A stretch of 64,000 nt of DNA, taken from positions 960,001 to 1,024,000 of the forward strand of contig CAWKNZ010000002.1 in NCBI GenBank assembly GCA_963851265.1. Reading direction: 5' to 3'. The translations under genes were made by a program, and so were the position numbers. This stretch comes from an uncultured Gemmatimonadales bacterium. Its GTDB lineage: Bacteria; Gemmatimonadota; Gemmatimonadetes; Gemmatimonadales; Gemmatimonadaceae. The first letter of the stretch is position 1, and the number at the start of each line of letters is the position of its first letter. This document shows positions 6,098-57,614 of this stretch, one piece after another. A model generated the notes under the pieces. It made no database searches and was not told the origin of the DNA. It saw only the letters and a list, made by a program, of their open reading frames with translations.

Positions 6098-6170
6098 GGG
6101 GCGTTAGCTCAGCTGGGAGAGCACCTGCTTTGCAAGCAGGGGGTCAGGGGTTCGAGCCCCCTACGCTCCA
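6098..6170 (+). tRNA. tRNA-Ala(UGC), 3' CCA not encoded
   Basis: GGGGCGT acceptor pairs ACGCTCC with G3:U70; D arm GCTC/GAGC; anticodon stem CCTGC/GCAGG with TGC at 6131-6133; T loop TTCGAGC. Confidence 0.97.
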
Positions 6171-48158: not shown

Positions 48159-48242
48159 TGCTCGGGGGGGGACTTGAACCCCCACGTCGTCTCCGACACA
48201 GGCTTCTGAGACCTGCGTGTCTACCAGTTCCACCACCCGAGC
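48159..48242 (-). tRNA. tRNA-Leu(CAG), 3' CCA not encoded
   Basis: Reverse complement GCTCGGGTGGTGGAACTGGTAGACACGCAGGTCTCAGAAGCCTG..GGTTCAAGTCC..CCCGAGCA; long variable arm. Confidence 0.96.
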
Positions 48243-48935: not shown

Positions 48936-50348
48936 GTGGCGCGCGCGGGGCGCGTACGGGGGTGTGGCGCCGCGTTCGCAGTCGTGGCGCTCGCGGCGGC
49001 GGCGCCGCGCGCGCGCGCGCAGACGACGCCCGACCTCGTCGTGCGCACGCCCGCCGGCGCAGAGCGGCGCGTACCGGTCGTGAGCGTCGAGACGGCGGCC
49101 GGACCGCGCGACTTCGTTCGGCTCGACGCGTTCGCGACGGCCGTCGGCGCGCAGGTCACGCTGCGCGCTGATGGCGAGAGCGCGCGCTTCGAGTTCGGCG
49201 GCGCGGCCGTCGAGGTGCGTGATGGTCTGCCGTACGTCCGTGCGGGGACGACCGAGTTGCCGCTCGCCGCGGCGCCGACGCGTGACGCGCGTGGCCTGCT
49301 CGTCCCGACGCAGTTCGCCGTCGACCTCGTGCCGCGGCTCGTCCGGTCGGTCGCCTATGACGCGTCCACGCGTACGCTCGCGCCGGTCCGGATCGCCGCG
49401 CGCGCGACGGCGCGGGGCGCGCGCTCGGGCGCGCGCACGCCGACGGTCGCGGCCGCACCAACGCATGCCGCCGAGAGCGCGGCCGACTCGACCGCCCCAG
49501 TGGCGGCGGCCGTGCGCCTCGCGTCACCGCCACCCCGCGCGCGCCCCGCCGCGGACGCGAGCACGGCCGTGACCGCGGACGCGACCGCCGACGCACGACT
49601 CGACGCCGTCGGCGACGCCTCGGCGCGCGCGCATCGCATCGTAGCGGTGGACGCCGGGCACGGCGGTCCGGACGCCGGCATGCGTGGCGTGCTCGTCGAC
49701 GGCACACCGCTCGTCGAGAAGGACGTCACGCTCGGCGTCGCGCGCGCACTGCGTGGCGCGCTCATGGCGCGCGGCATCGGCGTGGTGATGACTCGCACGA
49801 CCGATACCCTCATCTCGCTCGGCGACCGGGGTCGAATTGCGAACGCACGGCACGCCGACCTGTTCGTCTCCGTGCACGTGAACGCGGCGAACCCGGGCTG
49901 GCGCGACCCGTCGGCCGCGCGCGGCTTCGAGACGTATTTCCTGTCGGAGGCGCGCACCGAAGAGGCCCGCCAAGTCGCGGACCGGGAAAACGCCTCGACG
50001 CGCTTCGAGACGGGGCTGGCTCCCAACGGCGTTGCCGACCCGCTGCGGTTCGTGATGAGCGACCTCGCGTCGAACGCGCACTTACGCGAATCCAGCCGAC
50101 TCGCCGCGGACGTGCAGACGCAACTCGAGCGCGTGCATCCGGGCCCCAACCGACGCGTCCATCAGGCCGGCTTCAAGGTGCTCGTGACCGCCGCGATGCC
50201 CGCGGTGCTCGTCGAGGTCGGGTTCGGCTCCAACCCGGAGGATGCCGCGTACCTCGCCAGCGTGCGCGGCCGCCGCGAGCTCGCCGAGGCGATCGCGAGC
50301 GCGGTCAGCGACTTCCTCGTCCGGTACGTCCGGAAGCCCGCTGAATGA
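48936..50348 (+). CDS. N-acetylmuramoyl-L-alanine amidase (Amidase_3)
   Basis: Signal peptide; DAGHGG, EK, SVHVNA, VLVEVGF. Confidence 0.9.
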   Translation: MARAGRVRGCGAAFAVVALAAAAPRARAQTTPDLVVRTPAGAERRVPVVSVETAAGPRDFVRLDAFATAVGAQVTLRADGESARFEFGGAAVEVRDGLPYVRAGTTELPLAAAPTRDARGLLVPTQFAVDLVPRLVRSVAYDASTRTLAPVRIAARATARGARSGARTPTVAAAPTHAAESAADSTAPVAAAVRLASPPPRARPAADASTAVTADATADARLDAVGDASARAHRIVAVDAGHGGPDAGMRGVLVDGTPLVEKDVTLGVARALRGALMARGIGVVMTRTTDTLISLGDRGRIANARHADLFVSVHVNAANPGWRDPSAARGFETYFLSEARTEEARQVADRENASTRFETGLAPNGVADPLRFVMSDLASNAHLRESSRLAADVQTQLERVHPGPNRRVHQAGFKVLVTAAMPAVLVEVGFGSNPEDAAYLASVRGRRELAEAIASAVSDFLVRYVRKPAE

Positions 50349-51292
50349 CGACGTCGTCCGACGCACGCCTCCGCGTCAGCGCGGCCGGACTCGAATTCCG
50401 AAACCCGATCGTCCTGGCCTCGGGAACGGCCGGCTACGGGCACGAACTTGCCGACGTCATGGACTTCGCGCGGCTCGGCGGTATCGCGACCAAGGCGGTC
50501 AGCGTGGCCCCACGCGCCGGAAACGCCGCGCCGCGCGTCGCGGAGTTTCCGGGCGGTATGCTCAACGCCGTCGGACTGGCAAATCCCGGCCTCGACCGGG
50601 TGCGCGCCGAGCACTTGCCGCGGCTCGCGGCGTGTCGCGCCGGCATGCGCGTTCTGGTCAACGTCGTCGGATTTGCCGTTTCGGATTTCGCGACGGTCGT
50701 GTCCGGGCTCGACGGCGTGGGCGCCGTGGACGCGTTCGAGCTGAACGTGAGCTGCCCGAACGTGAAGGCGGGTGGTCTCGAGTTCGGGGCCGACCCGACC
50801 GCCCTCGCGCAGGTGGTTCGGAGCGCGCGCGAGGTGACGCGACGACCGATCTTCGTCAAGCTCTCGCCCACGCTTCCCGACGTCGCGCGTGCCGCGCTCA
50901 CGGCGGCCGAGGCCGGGGCGAACGGAGTCACCCTGGTCAATACGATGCCTGGTCTCGTCATCGACACCACACGCCGGCGTCCGGCGCTCGGGTATGGAAG
51001 CGGCGGCGCGAGCGGGGCGGGGCTCCTGCCGGCCGGCGTGCTCGCCACGTGGCGAGTTCGCCGCGCGACCGAGGGACGGCTGCCGATCGTTGGGCTCGGG
51101 GGTGTTCGTTCGGCGGACGATGCGCTGCAGTACCTGCTGGCCGGCGCCGCGCTGGTCGGCGTTGGCACGGCGTCGATGCAGGACCCCCGCGCGCCGGAGC
51201 GAATCGCCCGCGGGCTCGAGGCGTGGGCCGAACGGGAGGGGGTTCGGTCGATCGCGGACGTGGTCGGGACCGTCGAGTGGCCGACGTCGTGA
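50345..51292 (+). CDS. pyrD: Dihydroorotate dehydrogenase, family 1
   Basis: NPIVLASGT, NAVGLANPG, ELNVSCPN, VKLSP. Confidence 0.92.
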   Translation: MTTSSDARLRVSAAGLEFRNPIVLASGTAGYGHELADVMDFARLGGIATKAVSVAPRAGNAAPRVAEFPGGMLNAVGLANPGLDRVRAEHLPRLAACRAGMRVLVNVVGFAVSDFATVVSGLDGVGAVDAFELNVSCPNVKAGGLEFGADPTALAQVVRSAREVTRRPIFVKLSPTLPDVARAALTAAEAGANGVTLVNTMPGLVIDTTRRRPALGYGSGGASGAGLLPAGVLATWRVRRATEGRLPIVGLGGVRSADDALQYLLAGAALVGVGTASMQDPRAPERIARGLEAWAEREGVRSIADVVGTVEWPTS

Positions 51293-52017
51293 CCGAGCGC
51301 GCGTCCCCGGTCGACTTGATCGTCGCGCTGGACCGGCCGACGCTGGCCGGCGCCCTCGAGATCGTCGACGCGCTCGGCGACGCGTGCCGGTTCTACAAGG
51401 TCGGACTCGAGCTGTTCACCGCGAGCGGGCCGAGCGCGGTCGACGCCGTGCGGGCGCGTGGAGCGGAGGTGTTCCTCGACCTCAAGCTGCACGACATTCC
51501 CGCGACGGTGCGTGGCGCGGCGGCGCGCGCGGCCGCGCTTGGCGCACGGCTTCTGACCGTGCATGCGAGCGGCGGGACCGCGATGGTCCGCGCCGCCGTC
51601 GATGGCTCGGCGTCGGAAGGCGGCGCGTGTGACATTCTCGCGGTCACGGTCCTGACGTCGCTCGACGGGCCCGCGCTGGCGACGGCTTGGGGCCGGCCGG
51701 ATGTGCAACCGCCCGCTGAGGTCGTGCGACTCGCGGGGCTAACGGCCGAGGCTGGTGCGCACGGCGTCGTGTGTTCCGGGGCGGAGGTCGCCGGCGTGCG
51801 GGCCGCCGTGCCGGGCCTCGCGACGCTCGTTCCCGGGCTTCGGATGCCGGGGGATGCGGCGAACGACCAGGCGCGGGTCGTCACGCCAGCGGCGGCGTTC
51901 GCGTCGGGTGCTCGGTACCTGGTGCTGGGGCGGGCGGTCACGGCGGCGGCCGAACCACGCGCGGCGATGGCGCGGGTGCGGGCGTCGTTGGGGGCGAGCG
52001 CTCCCGCGACAATTTGA
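51289..52017 (+). CDS. pyrF: Orotidine-5'-phosphate decarboxylase
   Basis: LIVALD, KVG, DLKLHDIP.TV, VTVLTS, DQARV. Confidence 0.94.
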   Translation: MTERASPVDLIVALDRPTLAGALEIVDALGDACRFYKVGLELFTASGPSAVDAVRARGAEVFLDLKLHDIPATVRGAAARAAALGARLLTVHASGGTAMVRAAVDGSASEGGACDILAVTVLTSLDGPALATAWGRPDVQPPAEVVRLAGLTAEAGAHGVVCSGAEVAGVRAAVPGLATLVPGLRMPGDAANDQARVVTPAAAFASGARYLVLGRAVTAAAEPRAAMARVRASLGASAPATI

Positions 52018-52029
52018 CGCGCCGGCCCC

Positions 52030-52059
52030 TTGCATGTGGGGCCTAACTCCCGTTAATTG
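52030..52059 (+). promoter_or_regulatory. Putative sigma70-type promoter for rpmJ-alpha cluster
   Basis: TTGCAT followed 16-18 nt later by AT-rich GTTAATTG in an otherwise GC-rich gap. Confidence 0.4.
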
Positions 52060-52103
52060 CGGGACTTGGCCGCAAATCTCCCTCGCATGGACGGAGCGTT
52101 ACT

Positions 52104-52220
52104 GTGAAAGTCCGCAGCAGCGTGAAGCCGATCTGCGAGCACTGCAAGGTCGTGAAGCGCGACGGCGTGACTCGCATCATCTGCTCTCGTAATCCCAAGC
52201 ACAAGCAGCGTCAGGGCTGA
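52104..52220 (+). CDS. rpmJ: 50S ribosomal protein L36 (Zn-ribbon form; absent from ORF track)
   Basis: GTG start, [45 protein letters not shown]. Confidence 0.96.
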
Positions 52221-52986: not shown

Positions 52987-53619
52987 ATGCGTTACACGGG
53001 TCCCAGCTGCCGGCAGTGCCGGCGTGAAGGCACCAAGCTGTTTCTGAAAGGGACGAAGTGCTTCACCGAGAAGTGCCCGGTCGAGCGTCGTCCCTACGCT
53101 CCCGGCCAGCACGGCCAGGCGACCGCTCGCCGTCGTAAGGTGAGCGAGTACGCCAAGCAGCTGCGCGAGAAGCAGAAGATCAAGCGCATCTACGGGCTGT
53201 CCGAGCTGCAGTTCCGCAACACGTTCGAACGGGTCGCGACGCAGCAGGGCATCACGGGCCACAACCTGTTGGCCGCGCTCGAGAGCCGGCTCGACAACGT
53301 GATCTACCGCATGGGCTTCGCGCCGAGCCGAAAGGCGGCGCGTCAGCTGATCCGGCACGGGCACGTGGACGTGAAGCAGCGCCGCATGGACGTGCCGAGC
53401 TATCAGGTACGCCCGGGTGAGGAGATCCGCGTGCGCGAGTCGGCGCGTGAGATGCCGCTCGTCGTCGGCGCGATGGACCAATCGTCGCGCGGGGCGCCGC
53501 TCGCCTGGATCGCGGTCGACAAGGAGTCGTTCTCGGGGCGGATGCTCGAGAAGCCGCAGCGCCAGAGCATCCCGATCGCCGCGCAGGAGCAACTGGTCGT
53601 CGAATTGTACAGCAAGTAA
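52987..53619 (+). CDS. rpsD: 30S ribosomal protein S4 (Cys-containing form)
   Basis: CRQCRRE..KC..KC, QLREKQK, LESRLDN, VELYSK. Confidence 0.98.
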   Translation: MRYTGPSCRQCRREGTKLFLKGTKCFTEKCPVERRPYAPGQHGQATARRRKVSEYAKQLREKQKIKRIYGLSELQFRNTFERVATQQGITGHNLLAALESRLDNVIYRMGFAPSRKAARQLIRHGHVDVKQRRMDVPSYQVRPGEEIRVRESAREMPLVVGAMDQSSRGAPLAWIAVDKESFSGRMLEKPQRQSIPIAAQEQLVVELYSK

Positions 53620-53929
53620 CGGCCGTTGCAGGGCTGCGCTCCGGAATGTCGTTCCGAGGGCATGCAGCGACCGAAGGATCGCTGTCCCTGCACGCAGTTC
53701 CGCGCGGCGTCGTCCGTGCCGGCGCTGTGAGCCCGGGCAGCGATCCTTCGCTGCGATCGGGGCGAGGGGTTTCAGAAGCACACATTACGCACGACCGTCG
53801 GACTGCACGACCGTAGTACCTGATTCACAGGTCGGGACCTTCACTCCCCAACGAGCCTGCCGCGCGTGAAGGGCGGGGCAGGGCGTCGCCTGGTCGTACA
53901 GACCGGGTGAGACCAATCCACGAGACATC
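53620..53929 (+). ncRNA. Candidate structured RNA in rpsD-rpoA spacer (family not recognised)
   Basis: 310-nt gap with several long helices (53672-53687/53735-53750; 53799-53812/53892-53905) and a loop-mediated pairing 53838-53844/53866-53872. Confidence 0.5.
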
Positions 53930-54991
53930 ATGGCAGCAATCGATCTTCGCGGGCTCGTTCGCCCGCAACTCGTCGAATCGACGAAGCGCGACGACCAGCC
54001 CAACGTGGCCGAGTTCCGACTGCAGCCGCTCGAGCGCGGCTTCGGTCACACGCTCGGTAACGCCATGCGGCGGCTCCTGCTGTCGTCGCTGCGCGGCGCC
54101 GCCGTGTGGGGCTTCCGCATCGACGGCGTCCTCCACGAGCACCAGACCATTCCGGGCGTCGTCGAGGACGTGCACCAGATCATCGGTCAGCTCAAGACGC
54201 TCGTGCTCGCGCTCGACGCCGACGTTGACACGTCGGTGCTGCGCATCCGCAAGACCGAATCGGGTCCGGTCACGGGCGCGGACATCCAGCAGGCGCCGGG
54301 CGTGCGGGTCGTCGACCCGTCGCACCACATCCTGACCCTGCAGGAGGACCGCGAGCTCAACGTCGAGCTCTACGTCAACAAGGGCCGCGGCTACGTCGAG
54401 AGCGACCAGCACCCGGTCGACCGCGGACTGCCGGTCGACCTCGTGCGCATCGACGCGATCTACAACCCCGTGCGCCGCGCCAATTTCTCGGTTGCCGAGA
54501 CTCGCGTGGGGCAGCGGACCGACTACGACCGCCTGACGCTCACCGTCGAGACGAACGGCACGCTCTCGCCCGAGGAGGCCGTGAGCTACGCCGCCGCCCT
54601 GGCGCAGACGCATTTCCAGTACTTCGCGAGCTTCGGCCCGCACGGCGGGAGCAGCAACGGGACCGCGCTCGAGGGCGGCGACGCCCGCCGGACGGCCGAG
54701 CTGCTGCGCACGCCGATCGACGACCTCGAGTTGTCCGTGCGGAGTGTGAACTCGCTCAAGAACTCGAGCGTCCGTACGCTCGGGGACCTGGTTCGTCTCA
54801 ACGAGAGCCAGATTTTGCAGGTCAAGAACTTCGGCAAGAAGTCCCTCCAGGAGATCGCCGACCTCCTCGAGCGCGAGGGACTCAACTTTGGCATGCGCTA
54901 CGAGGAGACCGGCGAAGGCGTGCGGATCACCGATTGGGGAACCGCACCGAGCCGCGCCGCCGCGAACGCGCCTGAAGACGACGAGGATTAG
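53930..54991 (+). CDS. rpoA: RNA polymerase alpha subunit
   Basis: [42 protein letters not shown]. Confidence 0.98.
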
Positions 54992-54999
54992 GAACCACC

Positions 55000-55353
55000 A
55001 TGCGTCACCGGAAGGCCGGACGGCAGCTCCGCCGCACGAGTGAGCAGCGCCTCGCGCTGCTCCGCAACCTCGCGACCTCGCTCATCGAGCAGGGCGCCAT
55101 CGAGACCACCGAGGCCAAGGCCAAGGAGCTCCGTCCCTTCGTCGAGAAGCTCGTGACGAAGGCGCGGCGCGGTACCCTGCACGCGCGCCGCCTCGCGGGC
55201 CGCCACGTGCAGAAGCGCGAGGCCGCGGACAAGCTGTTCCAGGAGTGGGGCCCGAAGTTCGCGGCCCGGCCGGGCGGCTACACCCGCATCCTCAAGACCG
55301 GCCACCGTCGCGGCGACGGGGCCGAGATGGCGCGGATCGAGTTCGTCAGCTGA
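55000..55353 (+). CDS. rplQ: 50S ribosomal protein L17
   Basis: [30 protein letters not shown]. Confidence 0.98.
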
Positions 55354-55368
55354 CCGGAGACGCATTCC

Positions 55369-56659
<1,291 letters not shown>

Positions 56660-56666
56660 GGACCGC

Positions 56667-57614
56667 GTGACGCGCTCGGCGCTCGTGACGGGCGCTGCGG
56701 GGTTCGTCGGCACGCGGCTCGTTCGCGCGTTGTGTGCGGCGGGGTGGCGCGTCACGGGGACGGCGCAGGGCACCGATCAGATCGCCGTTCGCGATCCGGA
56801 CGTGGAGTGGTTGACGGGCGACGTGCGGGACGTCGCGCACCTGGGGACCGCGTTGGACGTGGCGTCTCCGGACGCCGTATTCCACCTCGCGGGCGTGTCG
56901 TTCGTACCGGCGGCCGCGGCCGACCCGGGATACGCGGCCGAGGTCAACGCGGTGGCCGCAGCGCGGCTGGTCGGGCTCGTCGCCCAACGGCGGCGCGCGG
57001 GGACGCTGGACCCCGTCGTGGTCGTCGTCGGGAGTGGCGAGCAGTACGGCCGGCACGATCCTGCCGAGTTTCCGCTGACCGAGTCGGCGGAGCAACGGCC
57101 GCACACGGTGTACGCGGCCACCAAGGTGGCGCAGGAGACGCTCGCGATGCAGGCGTGGCGGGGCGAAGGCGTGCGAGTGGTCGCGACGCGGAGCTTCAAC
57201 CACAGCGGTCCGGGCCAGGCGTTCCGCTTCCTTCTCCCCGGCCTCGTCGGGCGAACGCGCGCGCTCCGCGCGCAGCCGCTAGGCGCGCCGCTCGTGTTGG
57301 GCAATCAGACGACCGTCCGCGACTTCCTTCACGTGGACGATGTCGTTGCGGCCTATATTGCGCTCGCCGAACGCGGCCGGCCCGGTGAGGCGTACAACGT
57401 TGCGAGCGGGGCCGGCCACTCCGTCGTCGACCTTGCGCGACGCGTTCTGGCGCGTGCCGGGACCGACGCCGACCTCCGGAGCGATCCGACGCTCGTCCGG
57501 CCGGCCGAAGTTCCAGCGCTCGTCGGGAGCGCGGCGAAGCTCGCCGCAGACACCGGTTGGGCGCCCCGCCGCACGCTCGACGACCTCATCGATGACCTGA
57601 TCGCGGCGGCGTGA
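56667..57614 (+). CDS. Extended SDR, probable GDP-4-keto-6-deoxy-D-mannose reductase (Rmd-like)
   Basis: TGAAGFVG, GSGEQYG, YAATK, RSFNHSGPGQ, RDFLHVDD; directly after gmd. Confidence 0.75.
   Translation: MTRSALVTGAAGFVGTRLVRALCAAGWRVTGTAQGTDQIAVRDPDVEWLTGDVRDVAHLGTALDVASPDAVFHLAGVSFVPAAAADPGYAAEVNAVAAARLVGLVAQRRRAGTLDPVVVVVGSGEQYGRHDPAEFPLTESAEQRPHTVYAATKVAQETLAMQAWRGEGVRVVATRSFNHSGPGQAFRFLLPGLVGRTRALRAQPLGAPLVLGNQTTVRDFLHVDDVVAAYIALAERGRPGEAYNVASGAGHSVVDLARRVLARAGTDADLRSDPTLVRPAEVPALVGSAAKLAADTGWAPRRTLDDLIDDLIAAA

Follow-up and report, generated by a model that had tools for sequence, protein, structure and literature searches.

The 310-nt spacer between rpsD and rpoA in an uncultured Gemmatimonadales bacterium carries, at its 3′ end, a genuine and strongly supported structured RNA with a loop-loop pseudoknot that is proven by covariation. 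The spacer lies in the 64,000-nucleotide stretch of DNA that we analysed (hereafter the window), which spans positions 960,001 to 1,024,000 of contig CAWKNZ010000002.1 (assembly GCA_963851265.1). The conserved element occupies about 85 bases of it (window 53830-53914) and consists of four helices, P0 to P3, together with 7 bp formed between the P1 loop (L1) and the P2 loop (L2). We tentatively read the element, at somewhat less than an even chance, as an intercistronic translational operator for rpoA-rplQ-rpmB that would be bound by an operon-encoded protein, most plausibly L17 or L28.

Fold and covariation of the element

A sequence-only reading of the window had pointed to the wide spacing of rpsD and rpoA within an otherwise tight cluster and had proposed a pseudoknot-like, multi-stem RNA directly upstream of rpoA. 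The checked coordinates give the same 310 nt, and the remaining gaps in the cluster are indeed short (5, 2, 3, 8 and 15 nt). When the spacer was compared by BLAST with 61 related genomes, only its last ~100 nt were conserved beyond the genus. Among 30 extracted rpsD-rpoA spacers, the core was present in 29, and the spacer of the exception measures 10 nt. A MAFFT alignment of 28 spacers, which excludes the locus from the unpublished genome G011, has 94.4% of its pair cells paired and compensatory changes in 22 of 32 pairs. None of 500 column shuffles scored as high, and when the partners were slid by 1-3 columns the paired fraction was 37-48%. G011 counts as one genome in the BLAST comparison and in the order-sample and rpmB-position tallies reported below; no conclusion depends on it.

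We then built a covariance model, R1, without the pseudoknot and aligned 100 hits to it, 90 of them distinct. Across these 90 sequences, the paired fraction of cells is 98.5%, with covariation in 25 of 32 pairs. Since the pseudoknot is absent from R1, the alignment does not favour loop-loop pairing. The central loop-loop pair occurs as A-U 43 times, G-C 28 times, C-G 16 times and U-A twice, and L1 and L2 are found in 14 distinct combinations. The G-U cells outnumber the A-C cells (54 versus 12), and thus the plus strand is the functional strand.

The helices drift freely in sequence across the 90 copies, and invariant bases are few. These bases (G53855, G53883, G53862, G53876 and the CGC/GCG below L2) are sited in the internal loops and the apical part of P2. 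Because CGC/GCG never varies, its pairing is neither supported nor refuted by covariation; the segment could form a 3-bp helix, or it could be a pair of conserved 4-nt linkers.

Comparisons with Rfam 15 found no family that matches the element. For window 53550-54000 at E<=10, the search returned just chance-level miRNA, serC and snoRNA models, far below their gathering scores, and at E<=1 seven loci that carry the motif in other genera had no match within it. The covariance models without a match to the element include Alpha_RBS (RF00140), the S4 leaders, the L17 leader and L17DE. The sequence-only reading had named conservation with covariation among relatives, and a comparison with Rfam, as the checks on its proposal. 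Conservation across the family and strong covariation mark the 3′ part of the spacer, which has no Rfam match, and therefore the proposal of a lineage-specific structured cis-element before rpoA-rplQ-rpmB stands.

Folded in isolation, the 90 nt at 53828-53917 have a minimum free energy (MFE) of -48.4 kcal/mol (z = -4.27), and none of 200 shuffles was equally stable. The hairpin CCTGCC/GGCAGG, already recognized from the letters of the window, is real and forms part of P2 (Table 1), and compensatory changes maintain its pairing in relatives. The complementarity of GTGAAGG to CCTTCAC is likewise exact and is held by compensatory changes. The pseudoknot pairing that had been proposed from it is real and covarying, but it had been missed that CCTTCAC is the 7-nt hairpin loop of P1, itself a covarying 4-bp helix. 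Consequently, the pseudoknot is a loop-loop (kissing) contact.

Other parts of the architecture first proposed did not survive comparison with relatives. A 14-bp closing helix (53799-812/53892-905) contains two mismatches (A53802/A53902 and C53806/A53898), is not found in the MFE folds and has changed in sequence even among congeneric species. Its 3′ arm actually belongs to P3, a hairpin whose length and loop vary among relatives, and the conserved closing helix is GGTC/GACC (P0). The hairpin ACCTG/CAGGT exists, but as a genus-level feature only. The repeat GCACGACCGT is present at 53789 and 53805, but as a direct repeat it too is confined to the genus level; the register shift that it had been proposed to allow was rejected because the repeat is unconserved.

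The geometry of the element poses a puzzle, as a 4-bp P1 stands beside a P2 of ~13 layers, the bases of the two hairpins are 2 nt apart, and their loops still pair over 7 bp. Arms this unequal, with bases this close, require a sharp bend in P2. The bend is probably sited at the conserved internal loops, or else CGC/GCG, which is invariant, may serve as flexible linkers and not as a helix.

Table 1. Coordinates (window numbering) of the element, its parts and the flanking genes; percentages of paired cells and counts of covarying pairs refer to the 90 distinct sequences.
Feature	Position	Strand	Basis or remark
rpmJ (L36)	52104-52220	+	Pfam; first gene of alpha-type cluster
rpsD (ribosomal protein S4)	52987-53619	+	Pfam Ribosomal_S4 E 9.8e-33, S4 E 4.6e-16; 5′ of spacer
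Variable 5′ spacer, outside conserved element	53620-53829	+	Not conserved beyond genus
P0 closing helix	GGTC 53830-33 / GACC 53911-14	+	MFE of isolated element; 96.6% of cells paired, 4/4 pairs compensatory
P1 hairpin	53834-53848: GGGA 53834-37 / TCCC 53845-48; 7-nt loop L1 CCTTCAC 53838-44	+	100% of cells paired, 4/4 pairs covary
P2 long hairpin	53851-53886	+	99.6% of cells paired, 7/12 pairs covary
P2 base	ACG 53851-53 / CGT 53884-86		Internal loop AG 53854-55 opposite G 53883
P2a	CCTGCC 53856-61 / GGCAGG 53877-82		G53862 opposite G53876
P2 apex	CGC 53863-65 / GCG 53873-75; loop L2 GTGAAGG 53866-72		CGC/GCG invariant
Loop-loop pseudoknot	L1 53838-44 with L2 53866-72, 7 bp	+	99.5% of cells paired, 5/7 pairs covary
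P3 variable hairpin	53887-53909 (53887-95/53901-09), 9 bp here; loop GTACA 53896-900	+	MFE; 94.4% paired, 5/5 counted pairs covary
A-rich, unstructured ribosome-binding region and rpoA ATG 53930	53915-53932	+	
rpoA (RNA polymerase alpha subunit)	53930-54991	+	Pfam RNA_pol_A_bac, RNA_pol_A_CTD, RNA_pol_L
rplQ (L17)	55000-55353	+	Pfam Ribosomal_L17 E 2e-37; gap to rpoA 8 nt
rpmB (L28)	55369-55590	+	Pfam Ribosomal_L28 E 1.7e-20; gap to rplQ 15 nt

Position before rpoA and taxonomic range

The N-terminus of RpoA is encoded within 260 nt downstream in all 90 distinct copies, and thus in 90 of 90 the element has the position of a ribosomal-protein leader (r-leader), standing before rpoA in a ribosomal-protein operon. 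A start codon was called in 86 of the 90 and lies 8-31 nt past the end of the model match. Between element and start there is often a GAGGA or AGGA, and sometimes no Shine-Dalgarno sequence. The ATG at 53930 is preceded by just a weak GAGA in place of a Shine-Dalgarno sequence, in line with the sequence-only reading, which saw no clear one. Natural minimal versions of the element occur in three genera (loci L017, L021 and L024), where P0 and P3 are missing and rpoA starts within ~17-25 nt. With the start directly after P2 in these genera, the constant unit is P1/P2 with its pseudoknot beside the ribosome-binding site.

On the other side, the distance from the rpsD stop to the element has a median of 73 nt among the 77 sequences with the stop located, and it is 12 nt or less in 11 of the 77. 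Simple consensus scans of 53400-54000, which are a weak test, found no promoter-like and no terminator-like sites, and the 90 upstream regions contain no position-specific A/T signal or fixed-distance promoter signal. Based on its closeness to the rpsD stop and the absence of a promoter signal, the simplest reading of the element is an intercistronic part of a polycistronic mRNA. An independent small RNA (sRNA) gene within the spacer would also have a stable, conserved fold and would also be covered by contigs from RNA libraries. We consider such a gene extremely improbable, however, as the same scans, weak as they are, give it neither promoter nor terminator, and the element, which is on the operon strand, adjoins the rpoA start in every genome and the rpsD stop as well in some of them.

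Public RNA data hint that the element is transcribed. In 24 RNA runs only 0.05-0.08 of the sampled words are shared, and soil metatranscriptome contigs from relatives, with at least 85% likeness and from four of these runs in four studies, cover 53810-53917. The same contigs give no cover over 53702-53809, where holes prove nothing, and one X1 contig joins 53619 to 53830; contigs of this kind cannot reveal transcript ends or co-transcription.

The element is a single-copy feature of one family. R1 finds one copy in the window's genome, at 92.5 bits. In an even sample of the order, R1 detects it in 61 of 62 Gemmatimonadaceae and in none of the 88 genomes of two sister families. All positive genomes have a single copy apart from G122, whose two copies are on different contigs. 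In a sample of the phylum it is detected in 30 of 31 Gemmatimonadaceae and in none of 119 genomes of eleven other families. We also scanned the genomes of 185,579 species with an exact pattern, which returned at least 120 matches; among the 80 matches listed, 79 have titles naming Gemmatimonadaceae, Gemmatimonas, Gemmatimonadales or Gemmatimonadota/-etes, and one reads 'uncultured bacterium'.

In the sister families, the rpsD-rpoA spacers are 3-13 nt long (5/5 genomes). As these families keep the two genes tight and are without the element, we regard it as a Gemmatimonadaceae-specific insertion that breaks a tight coupling. One genus of Gemmatimonadaceae (G030; locus L190 1780-1908) does without it, having a ~130-nt spacer with an unrelated GC hairpin and an unchanged rpoA-rplQ-rpmB order. 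G030 is a natural loss or replacement of the element and is useful for comparison.

These observations bear on an alternative in which the element has no ligand. Its compact fold would then insulate the translation of rpoA and uncouple it from that of rpsD, so that alpha is made at a lower fixed ratio to S4, or it would be a processing or stability site that splits rpmJ-rpsM-rpsK-rpsD from rpoA-rplQ-rpmB. Any insertion into a junction that the sister families keep coupled necessarily breaks that coupling, and in many relatives an additional strong hairpin, or a palindromic repeat, separates the element from rpsD. Furthermore, the ribosome-binding site is left open, no ligand was found, and G030 has exchanged the element for another hairpin altogether. 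However, the ligand-free account leaves ~20 near-invariant bases, and CGC/GCG with its G-G flanks, unexplained across more than 60 genera, and neither an insulator nor a stabilizer needs a 7-bp loop-loop contact that is so precisely kept. We consider this account possible, though doubtful.

A candidate translational operator and competing roles

Under the operator reading, L17 or L28 present in excess over rRNA would bind the rigid P1/P2 loop-loop core. The bound protein would hinder the 30S subunit at the adjoining rpoA start site, and translational coupling would then lower the synthesis of rplQ and rpmB as well. What the sequences show directly is the fold with its covariation and strand, the copy number, the taxonomic range and the fixed place before the rpoA start. 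We infer the regulatory role, the protein nature of the ligand and the identity of that protein from features that fit an operator, namely the copy number, the single gene context and the tight adjacency to the start codon. The gaps within rpoA-rplQ-rpmB (8 and 15 nt) are compatible with translational coupling. In our judgement, few invariant bases, sited in the internal loops and apex of P2, combined with drifting helices are what one would sooner expect of a protein site than of a metabolite pocket. Ribosomal-protein repressors commonly act at the first cistron of their unit and are encoded second to fifth in it, a pattern into which L17 or L28 acting at rpoA would fit.

Between the two proteins, L17 is the default ligand by the 'closest r-protein' rule that is named in Table 1 of PMC7247131 (Eckert & Weinberg 2020), where L17 is also a predicted r-leader ligand. 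Wherever rplQ was located it follows rpoA, in the window and in 32 of 32 sampled Gemmatimonadaceae. The case for L28 comes from the co-occurrence of rpmB and is a lead, not evidence. By hand comparison, all 32 sampled Gemmatimonadaceae have rpmB immediately 3′ of rplQ and in the same orientation. In 46 of 46 genomes compared (45 of 45 without G011), it lies 1.43-1.70 kb 3′ of the element, again on the same strand. In family f2, by comparison, rpmB is convergent in 66 of 69 cases, co-directional in one (G134) and on another contig in two; all 4 cases from f3 are convergent. It is co-directional and 555-760 nt away in 8 of 8 cases from f4-f6 and in 7 of 16 from f7, and on other contigs in 18 of 18 from f10-f12. 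The pattern agrees with the range of the element, but it reflects one family-level event with exceptions (G134 and G030), and it does not decide between L17 and L28. More broadly, the position of rpmB flips among lineages: two sister families have it convergent, with G134 as the one exception, other orders of the class have it co-directional after the gap of 555-760 nt, and in other classes it is unlinked.

Several points weigh against the operator. For control of L17 or L28, a site before rplQ or rpmB would be the simpler arrangement, as in the published L17 leader (PMC7247131), and here rpoA comes first. The co-directional rpmB of G134 is found without the element, which breaks the co-occurrence. 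The Shine-Dalgarno region lies outside the conserved helices, and repression would therefore have to be steric or by entrapment. G030 keeps rpoA-rplQ-rpmB without the element, which is therefore dispensable. No binding partner was found for the element; in an unfiltered R1 search of the 23S and 16S rRNA loci of the window's own genome, the best match reached 16.5 bits (E 0.022) at 23S ~604-681, with P1 and L2 deleted. On six unrelated loci, the background of R1 reached up to 15 bits, and we treated the 23S match, being so near to it, as chance that lends no support to rRNA mimicry. Among r-leaders, such a likeness to the rRNA site of the protein is common, though not required. To our knowledge, E. 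coli rpmB-rpmG is also not autoregulated through its leader.

The element also invites comparison with riboswitches, as a compact multi-helix junction, locked by a loop-loop contact and placed just before a start codon, resembles translational aptamers. A small molecule, such as a growth-rate or stringent-response signal, might then tune alpha and two ribosomal proteins. In purine and lysine riboswitch aptamers, neighbouring junction arms are tied by terminal-loop pairing. Compared to these, the element has loops that are complementary over all 7 bases and arms that are very unequal (4 bp versus ~13 layers), and it has one gene context and no candidate metabolite. It is present once per genome, its invariant unpaired positions are few, and the downstream genes point to no metabolite. 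Nor is there an expression platform, as no terminator was found in 53400-54000 and the Shine-Dalgarno sequence and start lie outside the conserved helices. We therefore think a riboswitch very unlikely. Among the functions listed in the sequence-only reading, a ribosomal-protein leader would be the best fit, whereas the riboswitch-like element and the sRNA find little support because there is no promoter or terminator signal, a single copy in a single context, and few invariant unpaired bases.

As a cis-regulatory leader in an operon of ribosomal-protein and RNA polymerase genes, the element is of a known kind; its family, its place before rpoA and its architecture are new. Full-text searches on structured RNAs of Gemmatimonas, and on rpoA, leaders or pseudoknots in Gemmatimonadetes, gave no published description of it. 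In its main text, PMC7247131 presents 20 candidate r-leaders, one of which is the L17 leader that precedes rplQ in Actino- and Proteobacteria, and it also lists S4 leaders, which precede rpsD or rpsM; none of those presented there stands before rpoA, and the string 'Gemmatimon' has 0 occurrences in that text. Like these r-leaders, the element is lineage-restricted, single-copy and covarying, at a cistron start in a ribosomal-protein operon with rplQ downstream. Unlike them, it stands before rpoA and not before rplQ, belongs to Gemmatimonadaceae, has a kissing-loop pseudoknot and matches nothing in Rfam 15.

A second comparison is with the E. coli alpha operon as described in PMC10931766, where a pseudoknot at the start of rpsM is bound by uS4, with trapping of the 30S subunit (entrapment). 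Both are pseudoknotted mRNAs in the same gene cluster and adjoin a ribosome-binding site, and entrapment is a plausible model for the element as well. However, in E. coli the site belongs to the first cistron, rpsM, and rpoA stays outside its control, whereas the element comes after rpsD and before rpoA. The element also differs from Alpha_RBS in being a four-helix junction with a loop-loop contact, and the two share no model match. It is conceivable that S4 itself binds the pseudoknot in Gemmatimonadaceae and represses rpoA-rplQ-rpmB, echoing E. coli. S4 is an established regulator of the alpha operon through pseudoknot entrapment (PMC10931766), and the element lies directly 3′ of rpsD, within the short distances given above in 11 of 77 sequences. 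Such an operator would exert no feedback on S4's own cistron, and its RNA matches neither the Alpha_RBS nor the S4 leader models of Rfam. The best R1 match in 16S rRNA, at 9.1 bits, is below background, and even in E. coli the alpha cistron is reported to escape S4 control (PMC10931766). Consequently, we regard S4 as a distinctly unlikely ligand.

The same source describes uS7 as binding the intercistronic region of rpsL-rpsG in the str operon (PMC10931766). The likeness lies in a structured intercistronic region of a polycistronic ribosomal-protein mRNA that controls the next cistron, as the element would. The genes are different, and a likeness to the protein's rRNA site is seen for S7 but was not found above background for the element. 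Both the uS7 and the uS4 sites are precedents for an operator of this kind.

The constancy of the rpoA start as a neighbour (90/90) would also suit autoregulation of RNA polymerase, in which free alpha or an assembly intermediate binds its own mRNA leader. Alpha is not known to bind its own mRNA, and we hold this possibility to be highly improbable. In its favour, alpha in E. coli is described as regulated independently of S4, by an unknown route (PMC10931766). A wider version, which we consider unlikely, makes the element a dedicated post-transcriptional sensor of alpha synthesis in Gemmatimonadaceae, read by free alpha or RNA polymerase or by a small growth-rate signal. If true, it would be the first defined mechanism for 'independent' rpoA regulation inside the alpha operon.

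How rpoA is set apart from the neighbouring ribosomal-protein genes has no settled answer even in E. coli, as far as PMC10931766 describes it, and a family-wide conserved fold at the rpsD/rpoA boundary offers a defined, mutable handle on rpoA control. The element also adds a structured RNA family to the Gemmatimonadota, a phylum that the main text of the PMC7247131 r-leader survey does not mention. The alignment of 90 distinct sequences is suited to an Rfam entry and to binding and structure work.

Gene surroundings and the variable part of the spacer

By Pfam, the cluster has the order rpmJ-rpsM-rpsK-rpsD / rpoA-rplQ-rpmB, with all genes on the plus strand. Upstream of rpmJ stand a pyrD-like gene (50345-51292, DHO_dh) and a pyrF-like gene (~51292-52017, OMPdecase), not the spc cluster, and an 86-nt gap (52018-52103) precedes rpmJ. 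Located 3′ of rpmB on the same strand are a GDP-mannose 4,6-dehydratase-like gene (55607-56659) and an NAD-dependent epimerase gene (56667-57614), after gaps of 16 and 7 nt, respectively. The sole Rfam matches at gathering score in the whole window are two tRNA genes, at 6098-6170 (+) and 48159-48242 (-).

The variable 5′ part of the spacer, about two-thirds of its length, includes, in the MFE fold, a near-perfect and highly stable long hairpin at ~53673-53749; the whole spacer folds at -156.4 kcal/mol (z = -3.27). This hairpin looks like a palindromic insert resembling repetitive extragenic palindromic (REP) sequences, and because of it the spacer measures 310 nt rather than about 110-230 nt. 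Hairpin-like stretches occur at several other sites in the congener G004. The window's own genome has only the single copy, and a dispersed repeat was rejected on that ground. The junction of rpsD with the element appears to be an insertion hot spot for palindromic sequences.

In L005, L012, L015, L019, L021, L024, L032, L082, L106 and other loci, the slot between the rpsD stop and the element holds either unrelated strong GC hairpins or repeats that are short and tandem or inverted, for example of GGGAATC or GGGAAC units, and some of the inserts are terminator-like.

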